A stretch of DNA of 64,000 nt from an uncultured Hyphomicrobiales bacterium (GTDB lineage: Bacteria; Bacteroidota; Ignavibacteria; Kapaibacteriales; UBA7675): the NCBI GenBank assembly GCA_964445695.1, contig CAYULF010000010.1, forward strand, positions 57,821 to 121,820, given 5' to 3'. Positions 1-64,000 of this stretch are shown here, one piece after another; within the stretch, counting starts at the first letter, position 1, and each line of letters begins with the position of its first letter. Under the pieces are notes generated by a model. That model had not been told where the DNA came from. It worked only from the letters and a program-made list of their open reading frames with translations, and searched no databases. The position numbers and the translations under genes are program-made.

Positions 1-1239
1 AACCAGGCGATAGAACCGGCGCACGTCCTCAGCGTGCTGCTGGACGACAAGGGCGGCATCATTGCACCGATGCTGATGAAGCTGGGCGTGAATGTAGACA
101 ACCTGAAAAGCGGCATCGACGCCGAAATCGAAAAACTGCCGAAGGTGAGCGGCGCGGCGCTGGGCAACCAGTTTGTGTCGTCGGACATGGCCAAGGTGCT
201 GGACATCGCGCTGGCCGAAGCGCAGTCGCTCAAAGACGAATACGTCAGCACCGAGCACCTGCTGATCGCGCTGGCGGAGCAGCGCAGCGACACGGGACGC
301 ATGCTGAAGGCGCAGGGCGTGACCAAAGAAACGATCATGCGCATTCTGAAGGACTTCCGCGGTTCGCGGCGCGTGACGGATCAGAATCCGGAAGACAAAT
401 ACCAGGCGCTCAAGAAGTACGGCCGCGTGCTGAACGACGAGGTGCGCAAGGGCAAGGTCGACCCGATTATCGGCCGCGAGGACGAGATACGGCGCGTGCT
501 GCAGGTGCTGGCGCGCCGCACCAAAAACAACCCGGTGCTCATCGGCGAGCCCGGCGTGGGTAAAACGGCGATAGCGGAAGGCATCGCCCAGCGCATCGTT
601 GAGGGCGACGTTCCCGACTCGCTCAAGTCCAAGCAGATCGTTGCGCTGGACATGGCGTCGCTGGTGGCGGGCGCTCAGTTCCGCGGTCAGTTTGAGGAGC
701 GTCTCAAAGCCGTGGTGGAGGAAGTCACCGAGTCCAACGGCGAAATCATTCTGTTTATCGACGAGCTGCACACGCTGGTGGGCGCGGGCGCTACGAGCGG
801 CAGTATGGACGCTGCGAACATTCTCAAACCCGCGCTGGCGCGCGGCGAACTGCGCACGATTGGTGCGACGACGCTGGACGAGTACCACAAGTACATCGAA
901 AAAGACGCCGCGCTGGAGCGTCGTTTCCAGCGCGTCCTGATCGAGGAGCCGTCGGTTGAGGACGCAATTTCTATCCTGCGCGGCCTGCGCGAGAAGTACG
1001 AGGTACACCACGGCGTGCGGATTACGGACGCGGCGTTGGTGGCGGCGGCACAGCTTTCGGACAGGTACATCACGGACCGCTTTCTGCCGGACAAAGCTAT
1101 CGACCTTGTGGACGAGGCGGCGAGCAAGCTGCGCATCGAGATCGACTCGATGCCGGAGGAGCTGGACTCGCTGGAGCGTCGCATCCGCACGCTGGAGATC
1201 GAGAAGCAGGCTTTGTTAAGGGAGTTGGGGGAGTCGTAG
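1..1239 (+). CDS. clpB: ClpB-type AAA+ disaggregase, N-terminal half only (N-domain, NBD1 and start of the middle domain); 5' end lies outside the window and the 3' end is an in-frame stop with no continuation
   Basis: Frame-1 translation from nt 1 reads [19 protein letters not shown] and continues through Walker [14 protein letters not shown], Walker B ILFIDELH and the sensor region, ending [15 protein letters not shown] at about 445 aa of an expected ~860. None of the three downstream frames continues a ClpB-like sequence. Confidence 0.8.
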
Positions 1240-1282
1240 CGCGGGTGAGTGAAGAGTTAAACAGAGCTTCGTGAGATTAAAG

Positions 1283-1315
1283 GCCGGGTTCGGGAGAATC
1301 CGGCTTTTGTTGTTT
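1283..1315 (+). terminator. Rho-independent terminator immediately after the truncated clpB ORF
   Basis: gccggg-ttcgggagaa-tccggc hairpin followed by a ttttgttgttt T-tract. Confidence 0.5.
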
Positions 1316-1334
1316 AATTGATGTTTGTATTTCT

Positions 1335-1425
1335 TGAGTGATGGAGTTTTTGGTGCGGGAGTTTTTGAGTGATGGAGTTTTTAGTGCGGGAGTTTTTAAG
1401 TGATGGGTTTTCATGTGGGCGATGT
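1335..1425. repeat. Tandem repeat of a ~31-bp unit (tgagtgatggagtttttggtgcgggagtttt), about 2.5 copies
   Basis: Direct reading of the sequence; the units differ by 1-3 substitutions. Confidence 0.7.
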
Positions 1426-1690
1426 AGTTTGAAGACTTCGGGTTTGTTTAAACCGGCCGAACTCTCGGCTAGATCAGGGGACCGCCCCGCCGCCTCCACG
1501 GTCGAGTCCTCCGCGCACCAGACACACTCCTCCCACCCTGCATTGTGTGCAGATTTTTTGAGTGAAGGCCGTCGCGGATTCACGCGCCGCATGCTGCGCG
1601 TTTCATCATGTCAAGATTAAACAAGTTGGTCATTCTACACCAGCGGATAACACTGAACGGTATTGAATTTCTGTTTGATCGTGCTGAATA
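1425..1690. repeat. Direct repeat copy A (~265 bp; core 1431-1655 near-identical to copy B)
   Basis: The string gaagacttcgggtttgtttaaa(c)cggccgaactctcggctagatcagggg...gtcattctacaccagcggataa occurs twice. Each copy contains the weak hairpin ctgca-ttgtg-tgcag followed by attttttg. Confidence 0.85.
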
Positions 1691-1839
1691 GTCCGCCAAG
1701 TGGGAGCGATGCGCCGATTGTTAACCTGGAATTCGGCAGCTGGTTCCGTCCGGGGTGATGAGCTGGTGTGCGTCAAACCTACGCTACTCAATTTGGTGCC
1801 GCTGCAAGTCTCGCCGCCACAGGATCAGAGGCGTCGAGG

Positions 1840-2105
1840 AAGTTTAAAGACTTCGGGTTTGTTTAAAACGGCCGAACTCTCGGCTAGATCAGGGGACCGC
1901 CCCGCCGCCTCCACGGTCGAGTCCTCCGCGCACCAGACACACTCCTCCCACCCTGCATTGTGTGCAGATTTTTTGAGTGAAGGCCGTCGCGGATTCACGC
2001 GCCGCATGCTGCGCGTTTCATCATGTCAAGATTAAACAAGTTGGTCATTCTACACCAGCGGATAAAACTTACTGGTATTAAATACCTGGTTGAACGTACC
2101 GAATT
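1840..2105. repeat. Direct repeat copy B (415 bp downstream of copy A)
   Basis: Near-identical to 1431-1655, with degenerate similarity extending ~40 bp beyond the core on both sides. Confidence 0.85.
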
Positions 2106-2172
2106 TTCCGTTAAACGGGGATCGAACTGTGCCGACTGGCCGCTGCATAGTCATTGCAGCTTAAACAACACA

Positions 2173-7797: not shown

Positions 7798-8364
7798 ATG
7801 CAAAAACGACTCCTGATTATTTCGGCGCCGAGCGGGGCCGGCAAAACGACAATTGCCGGCCGCCTCATGTCCGCCTTTCCGCAGCTGAGATTTTCCGTTT
7901 CCGCCACCACCCGGTCGCGCCGCCCCGGCGAGGTCGACGGCAAGCACTACTACTTCCTCACACACGACGAGTTTAAACAGCGCATCGCCGCCGGCGATCT
8001 GGTTGAATACGAAGAGATTTACGGCAACTACTACGGCACGCTGCGCAGCGAAATCCAGTCCTCGATGGACGCAGGCCGCACCCTGATTTTCGACGTCGAC
8101 GTCAAAGGCGCGCTCTCGCTTAAACAACAATTCCCCGATCAATGTCTGCTGGTTTTCATAGCGCCGCCGAGTCTTGAGGTTCTGCACGACCGTCTGGCCG
8201 GCCGCAAGACCGAAGACGCGGCGCAGCTGGCGCGCCGCATGGAGCGCGCGCGCGAGGAGATGGACTACCGCTCCCGTTTTGACATCGTGGTTGTTAACGA
8301 CGACCTGGAGAAGGCCGTGGGGGAATTGACGGGGAAGCTGGAGTCGCTGCTGGCTGGTGAGTGA
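7798..8364 (+). CDS. gmk: Guanylate kinase
   Basis: P-loop SAPSGAGKTT, guanylate-binding SATTRSRRPGEVDGKHYYF and EEIYGNYYGT motifs. Confidence 0.9.
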   Translation: MQKRLLIISAPSGAGKTTIAGRLMSAFPQLRFSVSATTRSRRPGEVDGKHYYFLTHDEFKQRIAAGDLVEYEEIYGNYYGTLRSEIQSSMDAGRTLIFDVDVKGALSLKQQFPDQCLLVFIAPPSLEVLHDRLAGRKTEDAAQLARRMERAREEMDYRSRFDIVVVNDDLEKAVGELTGKLESLLAGE

Positions 8365-8399
8365 GTGGGATAAGAAGCAGCAATCTCTGCAGCGATGGA

Positions 8400-8425
8400 G
8401 TAAAGACCGCTGCCGCGGTCTTTAC
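8400..8425. terminator. Hairpin with 11-bp stem (gtaaagaccgc-tgcc-gcggtctttac) in the convergent intergenic region
   Basis: Perfect inverted repeat between gmk (+) and the ATP-grasp gene (-). Confidence 0.5.
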
Positions 8426-8441
8426 TCTACGACAAGTTTAA

Positions 8442-8475
8442 AACACAACGGGCCCTTTTCAGGGCCCGTTGTGTT
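8442..8475. terminator. Bidirectional rho-independent terminator with 14-bp perfect stem (aacacaacgggccc-ttttc-agggcccgttgtgtt)
   Basis: Perfect palindrome flanked by A/T runs on both sides, in the convergent gap between gmk and the ATP-grasp gene. Confidence 0.7.
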
Positions 8476-8542
8476 TATTCAGCTACCAGTCTTTCGACTC
8501 AACAACAAGTCTTCAAGCTTAACAAATCAAAGACTTAACGTC

Positions 8543-9475
8543 TTACTTCGAATTCAAAAACGAACTCCACGCGTATTCCTGCGGAACCTTGCGGCCTTCT
8601 TTGGCCAGGTCGATCAGGAACTGCGCCGTGGTCTGTACGACCCACTCGAAGTTCTCGTCTTGTACCGACGAAGCCTCGGCGTCCGGCGCGGGGTTCATGT
8701 AATCGATGGCGTAAGGCACGTCGTCTTCCACCGCAAATTCCACCGTGTTGAAGTCGTAACCCAGCGCTTCGCAGATCTTGATGCAGTATTCTTCGATCTG
8801 TTTGCGGCGTTTCTCCGTTAACTCAAAGTCCGCCACGTAGCGCAGGTGGTGCGGATTGCGCGGGTCGTAGGGCATGATGTGCACGTGTTTGCGGCCGATC
8901 ACGTAGCAGCGGTAGTACTCCGTGAAGTTAACATTGGCCTGCAGCACCATCGTAGTGTCGCCCGACTCGTTGTACGCCTCAAACAGCTCCTGCGCGTTGT
9001 CGACCTTGTAGACCTGCTTCCAGCCGCCGCCGTCGTGCGGCTTCAGGAAAGCCGGAAAACCGACGTAGTCGAAGACTTCGTCCCAGTTGAGCGGGAACAT
9101 GAGGTTGCGGAAGGACTCGCTGCTCGTACCCTCGGGGTGTTCCTTCGACGGCAGCAGCGCCGTGCGCGGCACCGGTACGCCGATCTGCGACGCAAGCGCG
9201 TAGTTGAAAAACTTGTCGTCGGCGCTCCACCAGAACGGATTGTTAACAACGCGCGTGCCCGTCAGCGCCGCGTTTTTCAGGAGCGAACGGTAAAAGGGAA
9301 TGTCGTGGGAGATGCGGTCCAGGATGACGTCGTACTTGCTCAGCTCGGCCATCTTGACCGCACCGACTTTAACAAATTCTGCACAGACGTCGTCCACGTC
9401 CATGCTGTTGATGCGTTCGACCAGGGCAGGCGGGAAGGATTGCTCCATCCCGAATAACAATCCGATAGTTTTCAT
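8543..9475 (-). CDS. ATP-grasp domain protein (RimK / glutathione-synthetase-like fold); substrate unknown
   Basis: About 310 aa with ATP-grasp-like core FLKPHDGGGWKQVYKV...MVLQ...YRCYVIG. Start placed at MKTIG. Confidence 0.55.
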   Translation of the reverse strand: MKTIGLLFGMEQSFPPALVERINSMDVDDVCAEFVKVGAVKMAELSKYDVILDRISHDIPFYRSLLKNAALTGTRVVNNPFWWSADDKFFNYALASQIGVPVPRTALLPSKEHPEGTSSESFRNLMFPLNWDEVFDYVGFPAFLKPHDGGGWKQVYKVDNAQELFEAYNESGDTTMVLQANVNFTEYYRCYVIGRKHVHIMPYDPRNPHHLRYVADFELTEKRRKQIEEYCIKICEALGYDFNTVEFAVEDDVPYAIDYMNPAPDAEASSVQDENFEWVVQTTAQFLIDLAKEGRKVPQEYAWSSFLNSK

Positions 9476-9576
9476 GCGTAGTCCTTGCAATTTGCAGCGA
9501 CGTGGATAAACGTGATAGTTTGTATGTGTTAATTATTTGTTCGGTTTCATGCGGTCGATTAAACACGCATAAAGTG

Positions 9577-12385: not shown

Positions 12386-12398
12386 GACGATTTCCCCC

Positions 12399-30196: not shown

Positions 30197-30204
30197 ATTG
30201 CCGC

Positions 30205-53759: not shown

Positions 53760-53855
53760 ATGACTTGTAATTCAATGCCCCCACTGCAGCAAAGGAGTAG
53801 AGGTGTTTAAACACACTGATCTCGATGCCTTGGCGCGTCGCCTCAATAGATCCGA

Positions 53856-54377
53856 GTGAGAACTATGCGGGAACAACAAACAGACAGTTCAACAAGTCGG
53901 CCGGGAATAACGTTCTACGTCCCCGCTTTGTTGCTCTTGTTGTATGGAGTTGGAAACTTGCTGCAATTTGTGGATACATCTTTTGATAAAATCTTCTTTT
54001 TGTATAAAAAACTGCTCTCGATGCTGTTGTATGGCATTGATCCCTACTTTTTGCCCTATCTGCTGTTTATCTCGAAGGCCATGTGGGAGTTGTTTAATAT
54101 CCTGGCGAGTGTTGTTCTATTGCTCTTGTTTGTTCGCGGAAAACGCTCGTTTCATCGCCTGGCCATGTATTATGTCTGGCTGTACGCCCTCGTTTGGCTG
54201 CTGGCGGGATTGCCGATTAATGTCTTCGGCGGCGAGTCGGTGTTAAACGTAAATTTCTGGCTGGCGGTGGTAGCAGCGGCTATCTTTACGATATTCACAT
54301 CCAGGTCTGCGGCGTACGCGCGCGTGTTCAGGCAGATGGATGTTCAACAATCGCAGGAAGGTTCAGATGGAAACTAA
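53856..54377 (+). CDS. Membrane protein, tandem paralog 3 of 4
   Basis: LLLLFVRGKRSFHRLAMYYVW...AYARVFRQ matches the family pattern. Confidence 0.5.
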   Translation: MRTMREQQTDSSTSRPGITFYVPALLLLLYGVGNLLQFVDTSFDKIFFLYKKLLSMLLYGIDPYFLPYLLFISKAMWELFNILASVVLLLLFVRGKRSFHRLAMYYVWLYALVWLLAGLPINVFGGESVLNVNFWLAVVAAAIFTIFTSRSAAYARVFRQMDVQQSQEGSDGN

Positions 54378-54936
54378 TGACGCTAACAACCAGCCATCGC
54401 CTGCCGCTGTTCCGCCCGCTCCTGCCCGGGGTCCGCACGGTATCGGCGGGTTGATGTGGTTGCCGCTGCTGTATCTTGCAGTCGTCCTGCTTGATCCTCT
54501 CTTCAACATTGGTGCATTTCTGTTTAAGCTGGTTGTCCACGGCTGGCCGCAGGAGCCGGAGAACTCCGGGTTGCGATCGGTATTCGCCGATGCGCTTTTT
54601 TCCACGCTGATCATTCAGGCTTGCAACTTTGTCATGCTGGCAATCGGCGCTCAGACTCTTAATCTGTTTGTTAAACGCAGTCGTTTTTTTCCTCCATTGC
54701 TGTCTGCCCTCTTTTTTCTCTACGTCATGTTCCACTTCGTCACTTTGTTGCTTCGCCTTTGGATGGTATTTGGCAGCGGGGGCACGATGTCTGCCACGGT
54801 ACTTGCGCGGCAACTGGAACCTGAAATTGTGCTCCTCCTGCTCGAATTGTCGGCGGCAATCGTTTTGACCTTTTACCTCGGTATTTCCAAACGTGTTAAA
54901 AATACCTTTGGGCGGCTCTTCGTCAAATCCACCTGA
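54340..54936 (+). CDS. Membrane protein, tandem paralog 4 of 4 (true start may be the internal Met at ~54424)
   Basis: GIGGLMWLPLLYL...LNLFVKRSRFFPPLLSALFF...SKRVKNTFGRLF. The 38-nt overlap with paralog 3 suggests the later start. Confidence 0.5.
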   Translation: MFNNRRKVQMETNDANNQPSPAAVPPAPARGPHGIGGLMWLPLLYLAVVLLDPLFNIGAFLFKLVVHGWPQEPENSGLRSVFADALFSTLIIQACNFVMLAIGAQTLNLFVKRSRFFPPLLSALFFLYVMFHFVTLLLRLWMVFGSGGTMSATVLARQLEPEIVLLLLELSAAIVLTFYLGISKRVKNTFGRLFVKST

Positions 54937-54971
54937 GCAATCCCTTTCAAACCAATTTTGTTCGTTGTTTA

Positions 54972-55751
54972 ATGACAAGCTCGACGTCCTGGAACCCGGC
55001 CCTGTACCTGCAGTTTGAAGATCATCGTCTGCGGCCGGCCCTCGATCTGCTGAACCGCATTCCACTGCAAAACGCCGATCTGGTCTGCGACCTCGGCTGC
55101 GGCGCCGGCAACGTCATGTCTTTTCTCGCGCAGCGCTGGCCGCAGGCGCAGATTATCGGAATTGATCACTCGGCCGAGATGCTGGAGCGTGCGCGGCGCG
55201 AGTATCCGCAGTTCGACTTCCAGGAAGCCGATGCCGGAGCGTGGAAGGCGTCGACACCCGCAGACATCATTTACTCCAATGCCGCACTGCACTGGCTGCC
55301 GGATCACCGCAGCTTGTTTCCGCGCCTGGTTAAACAGCTGAAAGCCGGCGGCTGCCTGGCCGTGCAGATGCCCGCCAACTTCAAGGCGCCATCGCACACG
55401 CTGATTCGCGACGTACTCGATGACTTGCAACTGTGGAATGAAGAACTGCGTCGCGCACTTGGCTCGGTGGGTATTCTCGACGCGGCGGACTACTACGACA
55501 TTCTTGCGCCGCACACCGGCTCGCTGGATATCTGGCAAACCGAATACATGCAGTGCTTGCAGGGCGAAGATCCCGTACTGAACTGGGTGCGCGCCTCGGC
55601 TCTGCGCCCCGTGTTTAACTGCCTGTCGCCCGACCAGAGTAATCAATTTCTCAATGAGTACAAGCAGCGTTTGTCCGCCGCCTATCCACGACGCGGTGAT
55701 GGGAGCGTGCTCTTTCCTTTTAAACGTCTGTTCATAGTGGCTCGGATCTGA
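54972..55751 (+). CDS. tam: Trans-aconitate 2-methyltransferase-like class I SAM-dependent methyltransferase
   Basis: WNPALYLQFEDHRLRPALDLL...VCDLGCGAGN...IYSNAALHWLPDH is characteristic of the Tam family. Confidence 0.8.
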   Translation: MTSSTSWNPALYLQFEDHRLRPALDLLNRIPLQNADLVCDLGCGAGNVMSFLAQRWPQAQIIGIDHSAEMLERARREYPQFDFQEADAGAWKASTPADIIYSNAALHWLPDHRSLFPRLVKQLKAGGCLAVQMPANFKAPSHTLIRDVLDDLQLWNEELRRALGSVGILDAADYYDILAPHTGSLDIWQTEYMQCLQGEDPVLNWVRASALRPVFNCLSPDQSNQFLNEYKQRLSAAYPRRGDGSVLFPFKRLFIVARI

Positions 55752-55898
55752 AGTGAGCCTGCGGCGCCTGTGTTGGTCGGGCCTGAACCATGTAGCTTCC
55801 TCAAACCCGACGACCTGCAAGACCCGAACAGTGGTATTGCTGTGGAACTATGCAGTTCGTCTGCCGCAAAACAGGCCGTGTATTCAGGGCTGATCACC

Positions 55899-55950
55899 CA
55901 GTGACAAACAAGAGGAAAAACAAGCCGCAGGCGGAACAGCGAGAAGCCGC
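55899..55950. promoter_or_regulatory. ~50-nt conserved intergenic motif (copy 2), upstream of the DUF2235 gene
   Basis: Near-identical to 36373-36420. Confidence 0.4.
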
Positions 55951-56204
55951 ACGGCGAAGTGCTCAAGCCGCCCAATCAGAGTGAGGCGGTGTAAAGCCGG
56001 ATGGGAGTCTGTTCGCAGGCCGAAAAATTTCGCAGATCGCAGCAGTACAGGACTGAGCGGAAGTGCCGATGCCGAATGCGAAACGTTGAGCGCGTGAATT
56101 GTGTGTCGCCAAAAATTGCCTTGTAGAGTTTCGTTTGACGCGATAATTTCGGCGCAGCAACGTGAGTGAGATTATCCTTTTGTGTTAAGTTCAAGGATCA
56201 GAAG

Positions 56205-57224
56205 ATGAAACACATAGCTATCTTTGCCGACGGGACGTGGAATTCGCCGGAGACCGAGCGGCCGACCAATGTCCTGATGACCGCCCGTGCCGTGGCGCCC
56301 GAAAATAAAGCAGGTGTTAATCAGGTTGCTTTTTACGATTGGGGCGTCGGCAGCGACGGTAAACGCGTGGTCGGCGGTTTGACGGGGGAAGGCATCGACA
56401 AGAATATTATGGACTGTTATCGCTTCCTGGTGCACAACTACGAGCCGGGCGATAAACTCTACTTTTTTGGTTTCAGCCGCGGTGCGTACACCGTGCGTTC
56501 GTTGGGCGGTTTTATCCGCAACTGTGGTTTGTTAAAACGCGAGTCCGCCGGTGAAATTCAGCGTGCATATGAGTTCTACCGCAAGCGCGGTAAAAATTAC
56601 CACCCGGATTCCGTAAAAGGCAAAGCGCTGCGTGCAAAGTACGCCGTTGCCGACATCACACCGATCGAATTTATCGGCGTCTGGGACACGGTCGGTTCAC
56701 TGGGAATTCCCGTGCCGTTCTGGGGTACGCTGGGAGCGGAAGAATTTCTGTTTCACGATACACAGCCGAGTCGGATTGTTAAACACGCGCGTCATGCGTT
56801 GTCGATAGATGAAGACAGGGAAGACTTTGCCGAGACATCCTGGGACCACAAACCCGGTCTCGATGTTAAACAGGTCTGGTTTGCCGGCGTGCATTCGGAC
56901 ATCGGCGGTGGGTACCCGGAAGCCGGGCTGTGCGCCTGCGCGGCCGACTGGATGATGAAGGAAGCCGAGAAATTTGAGTTCAAGTTTTCGGATTACCTGT
57001 CCAAGCTGATCAAACCCAATCCGCACGACAAGATCCACAAAGCGCGCACGGGCATGTTTCACTTGCGGCCGGAAAATGTGCGCACAATCCAGGGACCGCT
57101 GCACAGCTCCGTTAAACAGCGCTGGGATGCCGACACACAGGGCTACCGCAAAAAAAGCAAGGCAATGCGCAAGTTGCTGCAGTCCGTCGGCAACGACTGG
57201 TCGAAGATAGAAGTCGTGGATTGA
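56205..57224 (+). CDS. DUF2235-domain alpha/beta hydrolase (Tle1-like phospholipase fold); no secretion-system context
   Basis: HIAIFADGTWNSPE N-terminus, nucleophile elbow YFFGFSRGAYTVRSL (GxSxG), and downstream GVWDTVGSLG, all typical of DUF2235. Confidence 0.7.
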   Translation: MKHIAIFADGTWNSPETERPTNVLMTARAVAPENKAGVNQVAFYDWGVGSDGKRVVGGLTGEGIDKNIMDCYRFLVHNYEPGDKLYFFGFSRGAYTVRSLGGFIRNCGLLKRESAGEIQRAYEFYRKRGKNYHPDSVKGKALRAKYAVADITPIEFIGVWDTVGSLGIPVPFWGTLGAEEFLFHDTQPSRIVKHARHALSIDEDREDFAETSWDHKPGLDVKQVWFAGVHSDIGGGYPEAGLCACAADWMMKEAEKFEFKFSDYLSKLIKPNPHDKIHKARTGMFHLRPENVRTIQGPLHSSVKQRWDADTQGYRKKSKAMRKLLQSVGNDWSKIEVVD

Positions 57225-57276
57225 CCGTGCCACGGCGCTGGAGTGTTAAAACTCAAGAAGTACAAAGTGGCGGTTG

Positions 57277-58155
57277 TTAACCAGCTGCGAGTGCAGGAGA
57301 TCCAAGCGGGCGGAACTGCAGGTGATGCGCCGTCGGGACAATCAGCGGTGTGTTGCTCTGCGGATGCGTGCGGACATCAACCTCCAGACCGAAGGCTGCG
57401 CCTATGTGCTCTTGCGTGAGGACCCGGGCCGGGCTGCCGCTCGCAAGAATTCTGCCGCTGTTTAACAGGCAGACGCGGTCCGCACATTGCGCCGCCATGT
57501 TGAGATCGTGCATGATAATAACCACGCCCAGTCCCTGTGAGTCAGCCAGCCCGCGAACGAGCTGCAGCATCAGGTGCTGTTGTTTAATGTCGAGATTTGA
57601 CGTCGGCTCGTCGAGCAGGAGGAAACGACCGCGCATATCGCATGTATTGTCGCAGCGCAATTGCGCCAGGGCGCGCGCAAGGTGAATGCGCTGTTGTTCG
57701 CCGCCGGACAGCGTTAAAAAGTCGCGTTCCGCCAGGTGTGCCGCGTCCACAAGCTTCAATAGATTGTAAGCCGCTTCCGCATCGTCCTGACCGGCGCGGC
57801 CCGCGTGCAGCGGCAGCCGTCCAAGCATGACAACGTCGACGGCGGCGAAGGAAAAACCGAGCTTTGGATTTTGCGTCATGACTGCGCGCAGTTGAGCCAA
57901 TTCGTCCGCCTTCCAGTCGCGCAATGGACGATTGTTAAACAGTATCTCGCCGGAGTCGGGCGCAAGGTCGCCGCAGACCAACCGCATCAGCGTTGTTTTA
58001 CCTGCGCCGTTGCAGCCCATCAGCGCACAGACTTCGCCCGGGACGATGTCGAGCGAGACGTCGTCCAGAATTGAGTGTTTGCCGTGAGCGAAATTCAGGT
58101 GTTTAACGCTTATCACATCAGGCTCCGGTTGCGTTTGAAGCGTAAAAGCAGCCAC
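57277..58155 (-). CDS. hmuV: Heme/iron-siderophore ABC transporter ATP-binding protein (HmuV/FecE-like)
   Basis: Walker A GCNGAGKTTL, signature LSGGEQQRIHLARAL, Walker B LLLDEPTSNLD, H-loop IIMHDLN. Confidence 0.85.
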   Translation of the reverse strand: MAAFTLQTQPEPDVISVKHLNFAHGKHSILDDVSLDIVPGEVCALMGCNGAGKTTLMRLVCGDLAPDSGEILFNNRPLRDWKADELAQLRAVMTQNPKLGFSFAAVDVVMLGRLPLHAGRAGQDDAEAAYNLLKLVDAAHLAERDFLTLSGGEQQRIHLARALAQLRCDNTCDMRGRFLLLDEPTSNLDIKQQHLMLQLVRGLADSQGLGVVIIMHDLNMAAQCADRVCLLNSGRILASGSPARVLTQEHIGAAFGLEVDVRTHPQSNTPLIVPTAHHLQFRPLGSPALAAG

Positions 58156-59204
58156 AGGAAAAAGGGACCGCCGATGGCGGATGTTAATATTCCCACCGGC
58201 ATCTCCGCCGGCGCAGCCACGAGACGCGCCGCCAGGTCCGAGAGTAACAACAATATTCCACCGCTCAATATCGAGAGCGGAATGACGCGTTGGTGATGCG
58301 AGCCCACAAGCAGTCTCACAATATGCGGCACCACCAGGCCGATGAATCCGATCACACCCGCCAGCGAGACAGCCGCGCCTACAATAATTGCCGTTAAAAA
58401 TGTGATGTGAAATTTGCCGCGTTCCACGTCAAAGCCGAGGTGCCGCGCCTCGCGTTCGCCCAGCATCATGGCGTCCAGCACACTCGAATAGCGCGTTAAA
58501 GCTAAAAGAGCGGGCAGGATAAACAGTGCCGCGATGCCGATCGACTTCCAGCCCGCTCCGGCGATATTGCCGAGCAGCCAGAACGTTACCGTGCGCAGTT
58601 CGTCGTCGTCCGCCACGAACATCATTAAACCGATAAATGCCGCGGCCATGGCGTTGATCGCAATACCGCCCAGAATCATGATTGTGACGGATGTTTCATT
58701 GTTGCGCGTAGAAATGCGGAACACCAGCCAGGTTGCCGCCAGGCCGCCCAGGAAGGCCGCCGCCGGCGTCAGAAACAGCGTCAGAGCTCCGGCTGTTGCT
58801 CCGAAGAGTCCGCCGCCGATCACAATAAAAAATACCGCGCCGCAAGCCGCGCCGTTGCTGATGCCGATCAGCGCCGGGTCCGCCAGCGGATTGCGGAACA
58901 ATCCCTGAATTGCCGCGCCGGAAGCCGCCAGTCCCGCTCCGAGCAGAATGCAGAACAGCGTGCGCGGCAGGCGGATAAATACGACAATTGATTCCTGCGT
59001 GGCGGTGAATTCCCAGGGGAGTTTAAGTCCGATCTGTGCCGCCAGTATGGATAACAGCTCCTGCGGCGAGAGTCCGACAGCGCCGAAGGAAACCGAAGCC
59101 AGCGCCAGTGCAACAAGCGCAAACAGCAGCACCGCAACCAATTGTGACTGCGATGTACTGCGACTTTTGCGTTTGTTTAATATGGCGGCGGCCAGGCTGT
59201 TCAT
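58113..59204 (-). CDS. hmuU: FecCD-family ABC permease (heme/iron complex)
   Basis: About 9 TM helices with FecCD blocks RLPRTLFCILLGAGLAASGAAIQGLFRNPLADPALIGIS. Start placed at MNSLAAAIL, since the upstream Arg-rich extension is non-coding. Confidence 0.8.
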   Translation of the reverse strand: MNSLAAAILNKRKSRSTSQSQLVAVLLFALVALALASVSFGAVGLSPQELLSILAAQIGLKLPWEFTATQESIVVFIRLPRTLFCILLGAGLAASGAAIQGLFRNPLADPALIGISNGAACGAVFFIVIGGGLFGATAGALTLFLTPAAAFLGGLAATWLVFRISTRNNETSVTIMILGGIAINAMAAAFIGLMMFVADDDELRTVTFWLLGNIAGAGWKSIGIAALFILPALLALTRYSSVLDAMMLGEREARHLGFDVERGKFHITFLTAIIVGAAVSLAGVIGFIGLVVPHIVRLLVGSHHQRVIPLSILSGGILLLLSDLAARLVAAPAEMPVGILTSAIGGPFFLWLLLRFKRNRSLM

Positions 59205-60133
59205 CGACCTGCCTCCGCATCGCCGAAGTGCAGGCCGCGTACGAGTTCGATCATGGCTTTGCCGAGGCGCGGACCGAAACCGAGCAGGAGCAGATCGTCG
59301 ATGACGACAAAGTTGGCGTTTCTGCCGGCGGGAGTCTGCGCAATACCGGGGATGTTTAACAGCCCCTCGGTTCCACCGACACTGGCAAGTCCGGAAGTCG
59401 TCAGCACCAGCACGTCGGGCGAACGTCCGATAATCGCTTCGGCGCCGACGGGTTTCCATCCGTCGATGTCATGCACCACGTTGTCGGACATGCACCAGTT
59501 CAACATGAAGTCGATCGGCGTGTCCGCGCCGCCGGCGTTGAGTACTTTGGCGCCGCGCAGGTAAAGCATCAGTGCTTTCCGGCGCGTTGTTGCATCTTTT
59601 AACAGTTCGCGCGCATGTGCCAGATCGCGATCCAGCGTACTGATCAGCGCTTCGCCGCGTTCTTTGCGGTTGAGTGCGGCGGCCAACAGCGTGATTTTGT
59701 GTTTCGCGCCCGGAATGCTGAACTCTTCCGGCACGCGCAGCACCGGGATTCCCGTTGCGCGCAACTGGTCAAAAATGTACTCGGGACCGGCCAGATCGGA
59801 AATGATAATGAGCGTGGGGTTAAACGACAGAATTCCTTCCGTCGCCAGCGCGCGCCAGTAACCTACTTTGGGCAGGTTCTCCAGCGATTCGGGCCAGGTG
59901 CTCGAAATGTCCGTCGCCACGATATTGTCGGCATAACCCAGCGCGCAGACGATTTCCGTCACCGGGCCGCCCAGCGATACAATCCGCGAGCGATCCGCAA
60001 TGTGAACTTTGTGACCGTCCGCATCAACCACCGTCACGGCGTCGTCTGATTGGGCCCGCAGCTCCGCTCCCGTCGGCAAACAGAAGAACAGGATTGAGAG
60101 AAGCAGCGGTGTGATGTTAACAGATTTAAACAT
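59201..60133 (-). CDS. hmuT: Periplasmic heme/iron-complex ABC substrate-binding protein (HmuT/class III SBP)
   Basis: Signal peptide, then RIVSLGGPVTEIVCALG...PTLIII (SBP_bac_8-like fold). 4-nt overlap with the permease gene. Confidence 0.75.
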   Translation of the reverse strand: MFKSVNITPLLLSILFFCLPTGAELRAQSDDAVTVVDADGHKVHIADRSRIVSLGGPVTEIVCALGYADNIVATDISSTWPESLENLPKVGYWRALATEGILSFNPTLIIISDLAGPEYIFDQLRATGIPVLRVPEEFSIPGAKHKITLLAAALNRKERGEALISTLDRDLAHARELLKDATTRRKALMLYLRGAKVLNAGGADTPIDFMLNWCMSDNVVHDIDGWKPVGAEAIIGRSPDVLVLTTSGLASVGGTEGLLNIPGIAQTPAGRNANFVVIDDLLLLGFGPRLGKAMIELVRGLHFGDAEAGR

Positions 60134-61178
60134 GAACGTACTCCTCCCAGGCGCCGTATTTGCTCGCCAGGACCTCGCGCCACTCGTTCAGTTCGGGAAT
60201 GCCGGGTTTGCGTTTGCCAAAGAGTTGCAACACCATTTCGCCTTTGTCATTAAATATTTCCAGCGAATGAATCATGCCGTCGCGACTCGGTTTGCGCACG
60301 TACCAGGTTTCGTGCAGATTTGCGCCGTTAATGTGCAGGTTGAATCCGGGATCCATCACGTTGAACCAGCCGTTGAATTCGGCTGTTTTGTTTACCGTGC
60401 CGGAAAAAATTTGCAGGATGCCGCCGTTGCCTACAAATGCCATGATCGGCGTTTGTGTTTCGGCTGCGGCGGTTATGACTTCAGTAAATGAATTGAGCGG
60501 TACGCGGCGCGCCCAGTCCGGTCCGGCAATGCGCAAGGCCTGTGTGCGCGGCAGACCATGCTTTTTTAACATCCCGAAAAACTCGTGTGTGTCCTGCAGA
60601 GCGGCCCAGTCTTGCCGGAACAATTCTACATCGACATCGTTGTTGTCGTCCGCGCGTTTAACTTCCTGCGGCGTTGGATTGACCGCACTCTGGTCGTCCG
60701 ACATCAGGTCCTTCTCCAGCTGCTCAAAGGCTTCGCGATTGGATTCCGCGCCGATATACACCTTGTGGATTGCTTTTCCATGTTCGTCAAAGATCTGGAA
60801 GCTGATCAACTCGCCGCGTGCCGTAGAGCGGCGTTCGGTGTAGAGGCTGTGCCAGGCGGAAGGGAAGAGGCGCAGGTCGATTTCGCTGCCGAGTACCAGC
60901 CCGTGATCGGCGTTCAGGTGGATGTTTTTGTACTCGCCGCGCACCTCGTGCACAACGTCGTCATTGCGCGTCAATGCCATCACGCGCCCCAGTTCGCCCA
61001 GGCGCGGAATAAACGTTTTCCAGTCGGCTTTGAGGCGTTTAACATTGTCGCCGCAGTCGGTCGTCAGCAGAGCTTCCTCGCTCACGCCAAGTTGGTCGGC
61101 GGCGTCGCGGATACGCGGCGGATTGGCGCCGGCGCGCATTTCCTGCCATTGTTCGCGGATAGAATCTACGGAAGTCAT
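60126..61178 (-). CDS. hmuS: Hemin-degrading / heme-trafficking protein, HemS/ChuS/HmuS family
   Basis: Two-repeat ChuX-like architecture, with blocks MALTRNDDVVHEV and IMAFVGNGGILQIFSGTV. Confidence 0.7.
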   Translation of the reverse strand: MTSVDSIREQWQEMRAGANPPRIRDAADQLGVSEEALLTTDCGDNVKRLKADWKTFIPRLGELGRVMALTRNDDVVHEVRGEYKNIHLNADHGLVLGSEIDLRLFPSAWHSLYTERRSTARGELISFQIFDEHGKAIHKVYIGAESNREAFEQLEKDLMSDDQSAVNPTPQEVKRADDNNDVDVELFRQDWAALQDTHEFFGMLKKHGLPRTQALRIAGPDWARRVPLNSFTEVITAAAETQTPIMAFVGNGGILQIFSGTVNKTAEFNGWFNVMDPGFNLHINGANLHETWYVRKPSRDGMIHSLEIFNDKGEMVLQLFGKRKPGIPELNEWREVLASKYGAWEEYVHV

Positions 61179-61332
61179 TGGTTTGCCTGTCCGATGTTTA
61201 ATGAAATGTTTGTTGTTCAGCGTCCGAAGCCGCAGCATCATTCGCATGAAAAAAAGTTGGCGGCAGGAGAACGGGTCTCTCGATGCTTTCGCTCTCCTGC
61301 CGCCGTGTGATCACCGCCGTCGCGTTGATGAG

Positions 61333-62604
61333 TTAGTGGATTTGAAGAGTTGCCATAAGCGTTTTTCCATCCAACTGCAGTTGAACTGCATACTGTCCCG
61401 CAGCCAGACCGTTTACATTCAGCGGAAGCTGATGCATGCCCGTTCCGGCCTTAACATTTTCCCGCAACACAATGTGACCGTTCAGGTCCACGATGCGCAG
61501 TTGCGCGCTCTTGATGTGCTTGTTAATCGCATAACTCAGCGTGCATGCGCCGTCCGTTACCGGTGCGGGGAAGAGCGCCATGCTGCCGACAAGTTCGCCG
61601 TTCGTTTCTGCAACGTCCGTCGACAGTGGTTCACCGACTTCAAAGCCGACCTTGCCGTCCGCACCGCCGCCGAATTCCGTGAAGTAGACTTTGTAAATAC
61701 TGCCGTCGTGCGCCTGTACAAAGTAGGCCACGCTCTCATTCATCACGTATGAGTTGGTTGAGAATGAGAATTCTTTCCAGTCGTGACCGATAATGTTAAT
61801 ATCCTCGCTCAGCGTCATGTCCTGGCTGTAGCTGACCGTCAGCGGGTCGACGTCGTCGGCCTGGGCGCAAAGCACGCCGACATTGCTGCGCACGCCGGAG
61901 ACGACGTAGGGAACATCGCCATTTTCGCCGACGTAGGCGATGTAACGTCCAAACACGATGTCCCACTCGGCGCTGAGCGGTTCGCGGTCAAGCGTCGTAT
62001 GTGAACCGAGCGAATAATACGCGAAGTTTTTACCGCTGAACTCACTCTTGGCGATTTCGGCGCTGTGCGCGTTGCTGCCGTCCAGGTTGGCGTATTTGAT
62101 CGTGTACACACCCGACTTCAGACTCTCGACCATCAGTTTAACATAAGTCGTCGCGTCCAGCTGCAGGACAAAAATTTCCGTGCCGTCCACGTGGTGAGTA
62201 ATCGGATTGTATTCACCCCAGCCCAGCGAGCCGCTGTTCGGGTCAATGCCGAGGTTAAGCGCACCCGAGCTCCATGACGTTTCCGAATTGTATGTCAGTT
62301 CCCAATTCGCCGTCATGCCGTTGGTGTCCAGCAGGTCAAAGTTGTCGATGTTAACGCCGAATGCGTGCCACACAAGAATGCCCTTGCTGTGGTTAACCAG
62401 CACCGAGGCGGCAAATCCCGAAATCTCAAAAGCCAGATCCCAATCGCTTGCGCTCCGGCTTTCAACGCCGTCATCAGTAAGACTGAAAAACACGTCGTTG
62501 GCGTAGTCCGCTCCCATCGCGATGCTCCGTTCGCCTGCCAGAACGGGAGAGGCCAGGAGCGCAAATACACAAACGAATGATAAAAAAGTGCCGCAAAGTT
62601 TCAT
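61333..62604 (-). CDS. HmuY-like heme-binding protein with T9SS C-terminal sorting domain
   Basis: Signal peptide; MGADYANDVFFSL, SDWDLAF and EWDIVFGRY motifs, shared with the next paralog and reminiscent of the HmuY family. C-terminal ~80 aa forms a beta-sandwich ending LQLDGKTLMATLQIH. Confidence 0.55.
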   Translation of the reverse strand: MKLCGTFLSFVCVFALLASPVLAGERSIAMGADYANDVFFSLTDDGVESRSASDWDLAFEISGFAASVLVNHSKGILVWHAFGVNIDNFDLLDTNGMTANWELTYNSETSWSSGALNLGIDPNSGSLGWGEYNPITHHVDGTEIFVLQLDATTYVKLMVESLKSGVYTIKYANLDGSNAHSAEIAKSEFSGKNFAYYSLGSHTTLDREPLSAEWDIVFGRYIAYVGENGDVPYVVSGVRSNVGVLCAQADDVDPLTVSYSQDMTLSEDINIIGHDWKEFSFSTNSYVMNESVAYFVQAHDGSIYKVYFTEFGGGADGKVGFEVGEPLSTDVAETNGELVGSMALFPAPVTDGACTLSYAINKHIKSAQLRIVDLNGHIVLRENVKAGTGMHQLPLNVNGLAAGQYAVQLQLDGKTLMATLQIH

Positions 62605-62819
62605 CGCTAAACCTATGATATAATTGCAGTTAAAAGAATCGTGCTCGTCGGTGTCGGCCGCAGTTGCCGGCAGTCTTCACCTTATCTGTATTTAAATCTG
62701 GATTAAGTCCAGATAACTGAGGCATTCTTGTTCGATGCGATTTCGCCGCTCTCTCTTGAAAGCCCCTTGAATGTTTTTGTTAACCTCGCCGGTAGAAGGC
62801 GAAGAACGACAAGTCAGTC

Positions 62820-63839
62820 TCAGAGCCGCTGGAATTCAAACGCGGGACTGCCTTTGTCGCCGCTTTCAGGATCGTAAAAATCCGTGAAACGCAGCTTGTA
62901 CAGAAAGCCGGCCGCATCGCGTACGATATAACTGCGGCTGATGTCGACGATGTAGAGCGACTCCTGCAAGATGAATGTCTTCCAGTCGTAGCCGATTGCG
63001 TCGGGGCGTGTGTTTAACTCCACCGCCGCCGCAGTCTCGCGGTCGATCAGTTCGTAGGGAAGTTCGTTAAACTCCGCCGCGCTTACCAGGCCGGGATTGG
63101 ACAATGCGCCGTTAACCGAATAGGGCAGCGGCTCCGGCTGGTAGAACACATAGACGTACTTTGTGAAAACCAGGTCCCAGCTTTCGCGCGGCGGCTCGTG
63201 CTCAAATTCTGCTTTGCTGTCAAAATCAAAGCCGATATAGTTGAAGCTGTCGTCGCGATTAACCGCGTAGGTCGCAGCGCCTGTTCCATCGATATTCGCA
63301 AGGCTGACGGAATAGAACTTGTCGTTGGCGGATTCAATCCGGAACAGCACGAGGCCGTTTTTCTCGCCCGCGGCGCTGTAGCCGCGATCAAGCAGGTAGA
63401 CGTGTTTGCGCGATGCAGCGCCGGGTTCTTCATCCGATCGCCACCACGCGCCGATGCCGCTGGAGTCCACATCGCCGCTCTGTACATCGTACCGGAATTC
63501 GGCGTTCTTGATCATCGCTGCATTGACGTCGCTGAATTCAATCGCTCCAAGATCGGCGACGGAAGCAAATTTTGCACTGTTCAGACGCACGTCGTAGCGG
63601 CCGGGCCGGCAGTTAAACTCCAGGTCCCAGAGTGCAAAGTCAACAGACTTAACGCTCCTGTTGCTGCCAAGGTCGAAGTACACGCGCTGCGCGTAGTCGC
63701 CGCCCATTGTAACCGTGGCGGCGCGAACGTCGCCGCGATCGATGGGAGCCACCAGTTCGTCCTCGGGCAGGCAGCCGCTCAGACCGACAAACACGGCGGC
63801 CAGCGCAAATCTGAATATGATGGAGTGTGTGTTAAACAT
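62820..63839 (-). CDS. HmuY-like lipoprotein (paralog of 61333-62604, no T9SS tail)
   Basis: Lipobox VGLSGC; MGGDYAQRVYFDL, FALWDLEF and ESWDLVFTKY motifs collinear with the upstream paralog. Confidence 0.55.
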   Translation of the reverse strand: MFNTHSIIFRFALAAVFVGLSGCLPEDELVAPIDRGDVRAATVTMGGDYAQRVYFDLGSNRSVKSVDFALWDLEFNCRPGRYDVRLNSAKFASVADLGAIEFSDVNAAMIKNAEFRYDVQSGDVDSSGIGAWWRSDEEPGAASRKHVYLLDRGYSAAGEKNGLVLFRIESANDKFYSVSLANIDGTGAATYAVNRDDSFNYIGFDFDSKAEFEHEPPRESWDLVFTKYVYVFYQPEPLPYSVNGALSNPGLVSAAEFNELPYELIDRETAAAVELNTRPDAIGYDWKTFILQESLYIVDISRSYIVRDAAGFLYKLRFTDFYDPESGDKGSPAFEFQRL

Positions 63840-63857
63840 CTTGTTGTCATTCCGAGT

Positions 63858-64000
63858 GTCAGAGCGTGTTCAGATCCAGGCGCAGAAACAGCGATCTCCC
63901 GGTGCCGATCGACACGCTGCCGCCCGCATCCGAGTGCACATCATTGCTGTTCAGGCTGTTGCTGATATTCACAACGTCGAAAATATTTTTCACACCGCCG
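63858..64000 (-). CDS. TonB-dependent receptor, C-terminal end only (start outside the window), likely the HmuR-type heme receptor
   Basis: Minus-strand translation ...GGVKNIFDVVNISNSLNSNDVHSDAGGSVSIGTGRSLFLRLDLNTL* resembles a TBDR C-terminal beta-strand region. Sits at the head of the hmu locus. Confidence 0.45.

Follow-up and report, generated by a model that had tools for sequence, protein, structure and literature searches.

The locus

The stretch analysed here, hereafter the window, comprises 64,000 nucleotides (nt) of contig CAYULF010000010.1 (assembly GCA_964445695.1, forward-strand positions 57,821 to 121,820), deposited as an uncultured Hyphomicrobiales bacterium and placed by GTDB in the Kapaibacteriales (Ignavibacteria, lineage UBA7675). 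Its most conspicuous feature is a short palindromic word, GTTWAAC (W being A or T), the two forms of which, GTTAAAC and GTTTAAC, are reverse complements of each other. The word is strongly over-represented and is concentrated in blocks of neighbouring genes, separated by blocks in which it is almost absent. Genes were called with a codon-usage model, and the calls agree with those on related contigs.

The blocks which are poor in the word include genes for ClpB, ScpA/B, SpoU, a glycosyltransferase, a Complex1_30kDa (NuoC-like) protein, ABC proteins and other housekeeping functions, and also genes for a large secreted protein and an OmpA-like protein. The rich blocks hold a haem-uptake operon, a Tle1-like lipase, a cluster with a Band_7 protein and a 1655-residue DUF3686/AAA protein, and the DUF4129 and DUF4350 genes upstream of MoxR. 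This distribution suggests that the rich blocks carry conditionally useful functions, with a functional split that is not clean.

Abundance of the word

The GC content of the window is 57.2%, lower than the approximately 62% given in the initial annotation. The two heptamers, for which this composition predicts 2.3 and 2.4 copies, are present 28 (GTTAAAC) and 21 (GTTTAAC) times; GTTAAC occurs 22 times (11.0 predicted) and GTTTAAAC 7 times (0.5 predicted). The initial annotation had anticipated one to three copies per heptamer, in agreement with these values. It had also listed positions counted by eye, each of which matches a true occurrence within 0–9 nt; about one third of the copies had been missed, making the list an undercount.

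In 100 dinucleotide-preserving shuffles GTTWAAC occurs 5.00 ± 2.28 times (maximum 11) as against 49 times in the window, a 9.8-fold excess. Among the 64 strand-symmetrised heptamers of the form S-W5-S it ranks first (49 copies, 10.4-fold), the runner-up being GAAAAAC/GTTTTTC with 31 copies. When GTT and AAC are held fixed, a central A or T is found 49 times (4.7 expected) and a central C or G, which gives GTTSAAC, 14 times (6.3 expected). Under an order-3 Markov model the clear outliers among all heptamers are GTTWAAC and the overlapping TGTTTAA/TTAAACA (58 versus 3.5); under a null of shuffled synonymous codons, too, GTTWAAC ranks as one of the two leading outliers among 7-mers.

Higher-order Markov models lower the ratio of observed to expected copies. 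It is about 12 under order 0, and for the two heptamers it is 3.7 and 2.6 under order 3; order 4 gives 1.8, and the maximal order 5 about 1 (28/26.2 and 21/22.4). Such a ratio near 1 had been named beforehand as the result that would speak against the enrichment. The excess is present through order 4, and the order-5 value does not refute it because the expectation is built from overlapping hexamers which are themselves enriched (GTTAAA and TTAAAC, 4.6–6.6-fold) and which lie mostly within the motif (28 of 42 GTTAAA and 28 of 53 TTAAAC). The signal is therefore already visible at the hexamer level rather than absent. The enrichment of GTTWAAC is real and statistically robust.

The forward strand carries 28 GTTAAAC and 21 GTTTAAC, and the cumulative GC skew climbs monotonically across the window. 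The strand analysis proposed at the outset gives no bias of the kind expected of words such as Chi, KOPS (FtsK orienting polar sequences) or AIMS (architecture imparting sequences). The flanks of the word are symmetric and weak: T precedes it at 25 of the 49 sites and A follows it at 22, giving the consensus tGTTWAACa. Beyond these two positions no conserved position is found within ±40 nt of the 49 sites, and neither helical nor codon periodicity of the sites is found. An origin from repeats or mobile elements, such as repetitive extragenic palindromic (REP) sequences or miniature inverted-repeat transposable elements (MITEs), was rejected, as the sites share no flanks within ±40 nt and no repeat family contains them. 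A promoter-like bipartite signal, with the 'AAC' of the −35 box of extracytoplasmic function (ECF) sigma factors and a −10 element, was likewise rejected, since a second conserved element was not found. At gathering thresholds the window contains no RNA families or tRNAs.

Coding context and codon choice

Most copies lie in genes, where protein sequence and codon usage could shape short words. A codon-aware null was therefore used in which synonymous codons are shuffled within each gene, so that proteins and per-gene codon usage are kept (500 shuffles). Coding DNA holds 43 copies of GTTWAAC, whereas the null gives 9.7 ± 2.7 (maximum 21), a 4.4-fold excess which also survives shuffles of codon order. 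The top sense-strand words in a k-mer scan against this null are TGTTAAAC (17 versus 1.3), TGTTAAA (24 versus 2.7), GTTAAAC (26 versus 3.7) and TTAAACA (20 versus 3.5). The initial annotation had proposed a wider motif family in which GTTAAC and GTTTAAAC stood beside the heptamers. Only the heptamers stand out: with codon usage accounted for, GTTAAC (14 versus 8.4 ± 2.6) and GTTSAAC (12 versus 9.4) show no enrichment and GTTTAAAC only a weak one (4 versus 1.6).

Three frames carry the word, namely xxG-TTA-AAC (Leu-Asn), GTT-AAA-Cxx (Val-Lys) and xxG-TTT-AAC (Phe-Asn), the others being stop-containing or rare. The earlier statement that all reading frames are used is thereby narrowed to three of the four frame and orientation combinations which are not blocked by stop codons, plus intergenic DNA. 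The choice of codon depends on bases of the adjoining codon, as far as 3 nt away. For phenylalanine before AAC, the ratio of TTT to TTC is 15 : 5 after G and 2 : 15 otherwise (Fisher p = 1.9e-4); for leucine before AAC, the rare TTA is used in 14 of 30 cases after G and in 4 of 35 otherwise (p = 0.002); and of 17 GTT-AAA pairs, 11 are followed by C. Of all leucine codons 5% are TTA, and of these TTA codons 59% precede A and 20% precede AAC. When codons touching TTAA are excluded, TTA accounts for only 1–2% of leucine codons in both the rich and the poor gene classes. Codon preference is overridden by the word.

Synonymous opportunities to form GTTWAAC are used in 42 of 123 cases, at similar rates in the two orientations (25/69 or 36%, and 17/54 or 31%). 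Intergenic DNA contributes 6 copies in 9.4 kb, a density like that of coding DNA, and the group of sites between the OmpA-like gene and the ECF-sigma pair (Table 1) means that the word is not confined to genes. The signal acts on double-stranded DNA, because the full 7-nt codon context is involved, neither orientation is preferred and copies also lie between genes. The pressure is exerted on a two-fold symmetric DNA word, and not on a repeat element, a peptide motif or a codon pair. Pressure at the DNA level, proposed at the outset on the basis of reading frames, is supported by the frames, by the intergenic copies, by survival of the excess in synonymous and codon-order shuffles, and by the conditioning of codons over 7 nt.

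Rich and poor blocks

Per-gene density of TTAA is bimodal, at either 0–1 or 4–8 per kb. Rich stretches extend over approximately 7.8–10.6, 20.2–22.9, 26.0–26.6, 36.7–45.5, 49.7–51.0 and 53.8–64.0 kb, and poor stretches over 2.2–7.7, 10.8–20.2, 27.2–36.0 and 46.3–49.4 kb. A single copy of GTTWAAC lies between 2.2 and 21.4 kb, and there is none at 27.0–32.3 or 45.6–50.7 kb. The over-representation had initially been described as window-wide; of the 43 coding copies, 41 are instead found in the rich genes (25.3 kb, approximately 22-fold over base composition) and 2 in the poor genes (29.3 kb). Averaged over the window, one kb holds about 0.8 copies, and in the rich blocks about 1.6.

Use of synonymous opportunities follows the same division. 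It is complete in some rich genes (3/3 in three of them, and 3/4 in another) and nil in some poor ones (0/5, 0/5 and 0/4), and the heterogeneity among genes is significant (permutation p = 0.016). The density of TTAA outside the motif predicts motif use, with 33 of 69 opportunities taken in genes of high density versus 9 of 54 in genes of low density (p = 3e-4). Rich genes are contiguous, forming 10 runs where 26.6 are expected (p < 5e-5).

The two gene classes are otherwise much alike. Their 4-mer spectra correlate with r = 0.95, and the only words that differ strongly between rich and poor genes are GTTA/TAAC (168 versus 29), TTAA (143 versus 19), GTTAA/TTAAC (114 versus 7) and TTAAA/TTTAA (107 versus 13). 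GC at third codon positions (GC3) outside codons touching TTAA is 0.70 in rich and 0.74 in poor genes, with near-identical codon usage there. In 2-kb bins, GC ranges over 0.53–0.60 in rich and 0.57–0.64 in poor DNA, so that the blocks are not markedly AT-rich. Synonymous nulls specific to each class were then used. GTTAA/TTAAC reaches 114 in rich genes (null 48.8) and 7 in poor genes (null 20.2); for TTAA the values are 143 (83.7) and 19 (40.6). Control words behave alike in the two classes: CTAA/TTAG 14 (52.3) in rich and 5 (37.5) in poor genes, CTAG 1 (4.9) and 3 (8.8), GTAC 76 (86.6) and 69 (88.6), ATAT 48 (53.2) and 51 (48.9), and GAATTC 17 (12.8) and 15 (11.0). The GTTAA core thus runs in opposite directions, being enriched in rich and depleted in poor genes, while control words containing TA do not.

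Two tandem Na_H_antiport_3 paralogues with about 72% nt identity lie to either side of the point where a poor block gives way to a rich one. The paralogue at 48105–49415 contains no TTAA and no GTTAA/TTAAC, and that at 49681–50982 contains 4 and 5 of these, respectively, and two copies of GTTWAAC. A second case of paralogous neighbours in opposite states is seen in a related contig (locus L085, see below), where positions 1–9300 encode two successive TonB-receptor/HmuY pairs; the distal pair is motif-free and the proximal one lies in a motif-rich block.

Expression or codon bias was considered as the cause of the blocks and rejected, since GC3 shows only a weak correlation with the pattern (rho −0.28, p = 0.07) and its values in many poor genes equal those of rich ones.

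The blocks are set in a genome with strong constraints on TA-containing words. TA itself is depleted in the window (rho 0.53), CTAG occurs 6 times where 239 copies are expected (0.03-fold) and CTAA/TTAG 30 times versus 359 (0.08-fold). CCTA, GCTA and CTTA are also scarce (0.17–0.26-fold), as is CCCC/GGGG (0.2-fold). As depletion of CTAA/TTAG persists against the synonymous-codon null and is common to relatives, YTAR words are avoided genome-wide, with the exception of TTAA in the rich blocks.

Conservation and lineage restriction

Two related genomes were compared with the window. The first, GCA_030430495.1 (contig JAUIKM010000023.1, loci L082, L083 and L085), is syntenic over the window at about 89% nt identity; the second is represented by an ENA contig of 4 kb (L144) at about 80% nt identity. 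In addition, a Logan contig (L081) is identical to the window at 36.2–46.2 kb. GCA_030430495.1 contains 5, 16 and 20 copies of GTTWAAC in three pieces of about 21 kb (1.2–1.5 expected), and it is also depleted of CTAG and CTAA. Block F (Table 1) runs about 2 kb past the window end in this genome and then stops sharply, positions 1–7200 of L085 being without a site. The 4 kb of the third genome hold 6 copies (0.2 expected). All three genomes share sites 21810 and 22207 in identical form, and site 21429 is common to the window and L144 and lost in GCA_030430495.1.

Of the coding sites which can be aligned, 29 of 38 are intact in GCA_030430495.1; 17.7 would be expected from 7-mers matched in phase and class (p = 1.8e-4), and 15.3 from matched controls rich in AT (p = 7e-6). 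Sites private to one genome differ from their counterparts by at least two substitutions in 10 of 17 cases and by at least three in 5 of 17, marginally above controls (p ≈ 0.05); an example is CTG-TTA-AAC versus CTG-CTG-GAT. These multiple substitutions are consistent with disfavoured codons reverting once a site has been broken.

Per-gene TTAA density is strongly correlated between the window and GCA_030430495.1 (rho 0.88). Over equal aligned lengths, 63 private TTAA sites are found in rich and 15 in poor genes; turnover of sites is therefore ongoing and block-specific. Amino acid identity to the relative is 0.905 for rich and 0.913 for poor genes, and identity at third positions is 0.784 and 0.808. 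Given these equal protein and third-position identities, the rich blocks are neither recent arrivals nor less constrained. Relaxed protein constraint is accordingly rejected as their cause, and so is recent horizontal transfer, as the rich blocks have the same 4-mer signature (r 0.95) and the same divergence as the poor ones and are syntenic in the relative.

Outside this group the enrichment is not observed. GTTWAAC is not enriched at 80 ClpB loci of Ignavibacteria and Kapabacteria (among the matches listed), nor at 58 metagenomic loci encoding homologues of the 1655-residue DUF3686 protein with 37–53% identity (112 copies versus 160 expected). A trait of the wider clade is rejected on the basis of these 138 loci. 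A protein search returned only three members of the close lineage, after which identity falls to 43%, and among the matches listed for the ClpB fragment, proteins from metagenome-assembled genomes of Kapabacteria and Ignavibacteria reach no more than 77% identity. The host possesses Por_Secre_tail domains of the type IX secretion system (T9SS). The enrichment is restricted to one lineage.

Features of the window

Table 1. Blocks and intergenic groups of sites along the window, with the positions of GTTWAAC and related words.
Feature	Coordinates	Strand	Genes or setting	GTTWAAC	GTTAAC and GTTTAAAC	TTAA density and use of synonymous opportunities
Intergenic sites	1256..2116		Downstream of ClpB	GTTAAAC 1256, 2110	GTTAAC 1720; GTTTAAAC 1446	
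Rich block A	7798..10587		Guanylate kinase, ATP-grasp-like, GFO/IDH/MocA oxidoreductase	10012	GTTAAC 8293, 8817, 8927, 9242; GTTTAAAC 7971, just upstream	TTAA 4.4–5.9 per kb vs 0–1 per kb in adjoining genes
Poor block	10816..20200		Glycosyltransferase 9, Complex1_30kDa, fatty acid (FA) hydroxylase, SDR, ABC ATPase, RDD, SpoIIM-like, others	0		TTAA about 5 in 9.4 kb; opportunities 0/9
Rich block B	20203..22943		DUF4129, DUF4350, start of MoxR	21429, 21810, 22207, 22937	GTTAAC 20203, 20266	DUF4350 and MoxR genes use 4/4 opportunities
Rich block C	26033..26640		142-residue open reading frame (ORF) and downstream intergenic DNA	26094, 26239, 26572	GTTAAC 26610	
Poor genes	27155..36049		DUF7948 1013-residue protein, OmpA-like, anti-sigma, ECF sigma, 285-residue membrane protein	0 (coding)		TTAA 0–1 per kb; opportunities 0/16
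Intergenic sites	32337..32550		Between the OmpA-like gene and the anti-sigma/ECF-sigma pair	GTTTAAC 32337; GTTAAAC 32544 (context cacTGTTAAACAaca)	GTTAAC 32460	
Intergenic or small-ORF sites	34445..34666			GTTTAAC 34445	GTTTAAAC 34659	
Rich block D	36679..45531	+	251-residue protein, Band_7/SPFH, 661-residue protein, 1655-residue DUF3686/AAA/DUF7902 protein, start of MOSC	36984, 37080, 37326, 38487, 38711, 40199, 41951, 42506, 42692, 43100, 44411, 44537, 44666, 44731, 45525	GTTAAC 36712, 37492, 37817, 41090, 43349; GTTTAAAC 39803, 40778, 42895	TTAA 5.4–7.9 per kb in the four genes 36679–45353, 2.3 per kb in MOSC; opportunities 15/29 over five genes
Poor block	46288..49415	+	82-residue protein, 447-residue protein, first Na_H_antiport_3 paralogue			TTAA zero in 3.1 kb
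Rich gene E	49681..50982	+	Second tandem Na_H_antiport_3 paralogue	GTTTAAC 50709, 50834	GTTAAC 50203	
Rich block F	53805..64000		DUF2569-like genes, S-adenosylmethionine (SAM) methyltransferase, Tle1-like lipase, haem-uptake operon (ABC ATPase, FecCD, periplasmic binding protein, HemS/ChuX, HmuY)	54242, 54670, 55329, 55613, 56778, 56865, 57111, 57460, 57934, 58101, 59354, 59819, 60656, 61037, 62136, 63012, 63066, 63612, 63831	GTTAAC 57276, 60116, 62350, 62392, 62779, 63111; GTTTAAAC 53805	

The four genes at 36679–45353, all on the forward strand, form a conserved cluster and the most motif-dense block of the window. Homologues of its largest product, the DUF3686/AAA/DUF7902 protein (37–53% identity), are widespread in metagenomes. 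Identification of the cluster as a defence system was rejected, as PADLOC returned no meaningful match.

Several other features were also recorded. The 0.9-kb intergenic region downstream of clpB contains a 285-nt direct repeat (1420–1704 and 1835–2119, 93% identical, spacing 415 nt), which holds two of the six CTAG of the window and is preceded by three 31-nt tandem units at 1331–1423; the region 1200–2200 has no Rfam match at E ≤ 1. The ScpB homologue (4128–6002) is unusually long at 624 residues, with an Asp/Glu-rich low-complexity region at its N-terminus and internally, encoded by degenerate 9–12-nt tandem repeats at 4323–4592 and 5400–5734. Two intergenic segments of about 65 nt, 32364–32428 after the OmpA-like gene and 55903–55968 between the SAM methyltransferase and Tle1-like genes, are 82–87% mutually reverse-complementary and may belong to a small element dispersed between genes or to a terminator module.

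The stretch 51000–54400 is compositionally odd. Its GC content is 0.476 at 52–54 kb, it contains 9 of the otherwise rare CTAG/CTAA/TTAG words, and it holds DUF2569-like genes and three copies of a 33-nt tandem repeat at 51145–51243. It aligns poorly or not at all to the relative (82–84% identity, with a gap at 51.1–52.6 kb) and is possibly a more recent acquisition.

Origin of the block pattern

Four causes had been suggested for the over-representation: an uptake signal, a nucleoid-protein site, a methylation target and a repair bias. They remain the right shortlist. Because the motif is symmetric, restricted to blocks and conserved at individual sites, a protein recognition site (for a nucleoid protein or a methyltransferase) is favoured over an uptake signal or neutral repair. 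We tentatively prefer the reading that GTTWAAC is a selectively maintained site of a dimeric DNA-binding protein or methyltransferase which marks chromosomal blocks. The consensus tGTTWAACa would be recognised by a two-fold symmetric, sequence-specific protein, which may be of the nucleoid-associated or silencing type or may be an orphan methyltransferase that supplies a system of that type. Blocks at the scale of operons would be marked by how densely the sites lie, and occupancy would distinguish them. Sites would arise mainly by synonymous change, against the usual avoidance of TTA codons and YTAR words; they would then be kept by purifying selection, the core being avoided in the blocks between, and the disfavoured codons would revert once a site is lost. 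Selection on the density of recognition sites would be the simplest source of the pattern, because the word is installed against prevailing biases, is kept longer than comparable words, turns over in a block-specific manner and has its core depleted elsewhere. That a protein reads the word, and what its binding or modification would do, we infer from these properties of the DNA.

Several observations weigh against this reading. The lineage is represented by the 64-kb window and about 65 kb from relatives, about 130 kb in total, and a reader of the word, be it a methyltransferase or a nucleoid protein, was not identified in this sequence. The sole methyltransferase of the window (54972–55751) belongs to generic class-I SAM families and not to DNA methylase families. 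One-base variants at the outer positions (ATTAAAC, CTTAAAC, TTTAAAC and GTTAAAA) are also 4–6-fold enriched, and the site may for this reason be fuzzier, with a core of TTWAA or GTTAA, than a typical type II recognition sequence. Spacing of the sites within rich blocks is indistinguishable from random, with only a weak shortage of very short gaps. The size of the contrast between rich and poor genes is partly circular, as the classes were defined by TTAA density; this is mitigated by the runs test, by the use of non-motif TTAA as the predictor, by the retention of the pattern in the relative and by the control words. Finally, conservation of the sites could equally come from a site-specific repair process which restores them, with no function of the site.

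A bolder form of the preferred reading, which we regard as doubtful, treats the palindrome as a code with positive and negative states: it would be selected into operon-scale blocks, and its core selected out of housekeeping blocks. The dimeric protein or methylation system involved would silence, insulate or spatially organise the rich blocks.

The strongest competitor of the preferred reading is neutral, methyltransferase-linked biased repair ('molecular drive'), in which near-cognate mismatches would always be corrected to GTTWAAC, so that the word would build up and seem conserved with no function of its own. For the cyanobacterial highly iterated palindrome HIP1, correction of the very short patch (VSP)/Vsr type was proposed by Elhai (PMC4390886). 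Like CCWGG, the motif is palindromic around a central W; its enriched one-base variants are found mainly at outer positions, as described for HIP1 (PMC4390886); its sites resist substitution; and the extreme depletion of CTAG and CTAA/TTAG attests to strong context-specific forces on TA words in this genome. However, an enzyme acting genome-wide should not spare whole blocks, and genes of low TTAA density take only 9 of 54 opportunities. The spared genes are, moreover, depleted of GTTAA although they do not differ from the others in background codon usage or divergence. Consistent depletion is seen for none of the single-mismatch precursors: GTTAAAT/ATTTAAC occurs 2 times versus 3.5 expected in the window but 9 times versus 2.9 in the relative, and GTTTAAT/ATTAAAC is enriched (about 20 versus 3.5). 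The sole cytosine of the motif is also its terminal base. For HIP1, Xu et al. take conservation of sites to point to selection rather than replenishment (PMC5861425). On balance we consider such a repair bias an unlikely origin.

Less probable still is a DNA uptake signal, whereby biased uptake and recombination would enrich the word in segments which are often exchanged. Copy densities in the window and in its rich blocks fall in a suitable range, both orientations and permissive frames within genes are used, and the enrichment is lineage-specific; exchange of operon-scale cassettes could even produce blocks. Known uptake sequences, however, are about 9–12 nt long, non-palindromic and fairly evenly spread, with an emphasis on core genes. 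GTTWAAC is a 7-nt palindrome without extended flanks, and the housekeeping blocks are nearly devoid of it. Third-position identities of rich and poor genes give no sign of extra recombination, and competence genes were not seen in the approximately 130 kb of sequence covered, which is not genome-wide. Xu et al. put the length of uptake sequences at about 10 bp (PMC5861425).

A signal at the level of RNA or translation could be a codon-pair preference, a site for a ribonuclease (MazF-type) or RNA-binding protein, or a slippery sequence. Sense-strand GUUAAAC (25 versus 3.1 under the null) is more enriched than GUUUAAC (18 versus 6.6), and toxin-cleavage motifs have been proposed to show gene-specific presence or avoidance, as is seen here. 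Yet the three frames encode three unrelated dipeptides (L-N, V-K and F-N), opportunities are used at 36% and 31% in the two orientations, intergenic copies occur at similar density and the flanks are symmetric. This explanation is very hard to credit.

A by-product of composition (clustering of A/T runs, high usage of GTTT/AAAC and AACA/TGTT, or ameliorated AT-rich foreign DNA) is in line with enriched 4-mers (AAAC/GTTT 2.1-fold, AACA/TGTT 1.9-fold, AAAA 3.0-fold, TTAA 1.65-fold), with 3–6-fold enrichment of other S-W5-S words and with the maximal-order Markov ratio, but it has next to no likelihood and is rejected as an artefact, since an approximately 3-fold excess is left at order 3 and a 4.4-fold one under the codon-aware null, TA is depleted overall and TTAA in poor genes, the gene classes differ in GTTAA-type words only and not in ATAT, TATA, GAATTC or GTAC, and sites are conserved above AT-matched controls.

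Comparison with known systems

In the literature searched, neither GTTAAAC, GTTTAAC nor GTTWAAC is described as a motif of bacterial genomes, of methylation or of DNA uptake. To our knowledge, hyperabundant short palindromes are known essentially from cyanobacteria, with HIP1, the function of which has been unexplained for about 30 years. GTTWAAC is best filed as a word of this known but unexplained kind, with block restriction as an added feature which could make function testable. It constitutes an independent case, with a different, AT-rich word in a different phylum, and its sharp on/off blocks, which include adjacent paralogues in opposite states, offer a second and contrasting system for studies of methylation, nucleoid organisation, silencing and exchange. 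If the doubtful block code were true, it would be a sequence-encoded analogue of xenogeneic silencing without reliance on bulk AT content, and also a tractable non-cyanobacterial counterpart of HIP1. The pattern is in addition a strong lineage-specific signature for binning and strain tracking. Inference of codon usage and horizontal transfer in these genomes calls for caution, because most TTA codons occur only as part of the word.

Among other short words, Chi, KOPS and AIMS resemble GTTWAAC in their over-representation in coding DNA, but they are non-palindromic and skewed with respect to replication, whereas GTTWAAC is palindromic, with 28 versus 21 copies on the forward strand. With the uptake signal sequences (USS) of Haemophilus and the DNA uptake sequences (DUS) of Neisseria it shares a frequency of about one copy per kb, both orientations, permissive codons and lineage specificity; those sequences are 9–12 nt long, asymmetric, read by a competence receptor and not block-restricted, traits of which none was found for GTTWAAC. 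The Dcm/Vsr system and the CCWGG/CTAG skew of enterobacteria have in common with GTTWAAC a palindromic site centred on W, extreme depletion of CTAG in the genome and the idea of site-specific repair that reshapes oligonucleotide frequencies. GTTWAAC differs from that system in lacking a depleted T-for-C precursor, in the confinement of the effect to blocks and in having only a terminal C.

Closer in logic are systems in which the presence or absence of symmetric sites defines chromosomal regions, such as MatP with matS, SlmA with its binding sites (SBS) and Noc with its own (NBS). Their sites are nevertheless 12–14 nt long, number tens per genome and delimit regions of hundreds of kb. The silencers H-NS, Lsr2, MvaT and Rok favour a TpA step in a short AT-rich core, as is present in GTTWAAC, and silencer domains are likewise enriched blocks of a few kb with conditional functions, here haem uptake, a lipase effector and large ATPase systems. 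Unlike the GTTWAAC blocks, the GC content of which is only about 2–3% lower, silencers bind generally AT-rich DNA.

The closest analogue, together with the alternate iterated palindromes of cyanobacteria, is HIP1 (GCGATCGC), a word which is itself under-represented in the window (0 sense-strand copies versus 4.0 under the codon-aware null). HIP1 is described as hyperabundant within and between genes, conserved, without a peptide or RNA role, unevenly distributed and possibly tied to a methyltransferase (PMC5861425, PMC4390886), with an abundance 15–300-fold over expectation (PMC5861425). GTTWAAC is similarly a short exact palindrome, hyperabundant in and between genes, conserved between related genomes beyond background, without evidence of a peptide or RNA role and uneven along the chromosome, and its one-base variants are likewise concentrated at outer positions. 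It differs in its AT-rich core and its odd length of 7 nt with a central W, as HIP1 is a GC-rich octamer containing GATC, and in its host, an uncultured FCB-group lineage near Kapabacteria and Ignavibacteria rather than a cyanobacterium. Its excess may also be lower: GTTWAAC is in about 10-fold excess across the window and in rich genes exceeds base composition about 22-fold, values which apply at the scale of the window only, as compared with 15–300-fold for HIP1. Finally, its distribution is sharply bimodal at a block scale of 0.5–15 kb, with the core depleted in poor blocks, whereas a periodicity of 10–90 kb has been reported for HIP1.

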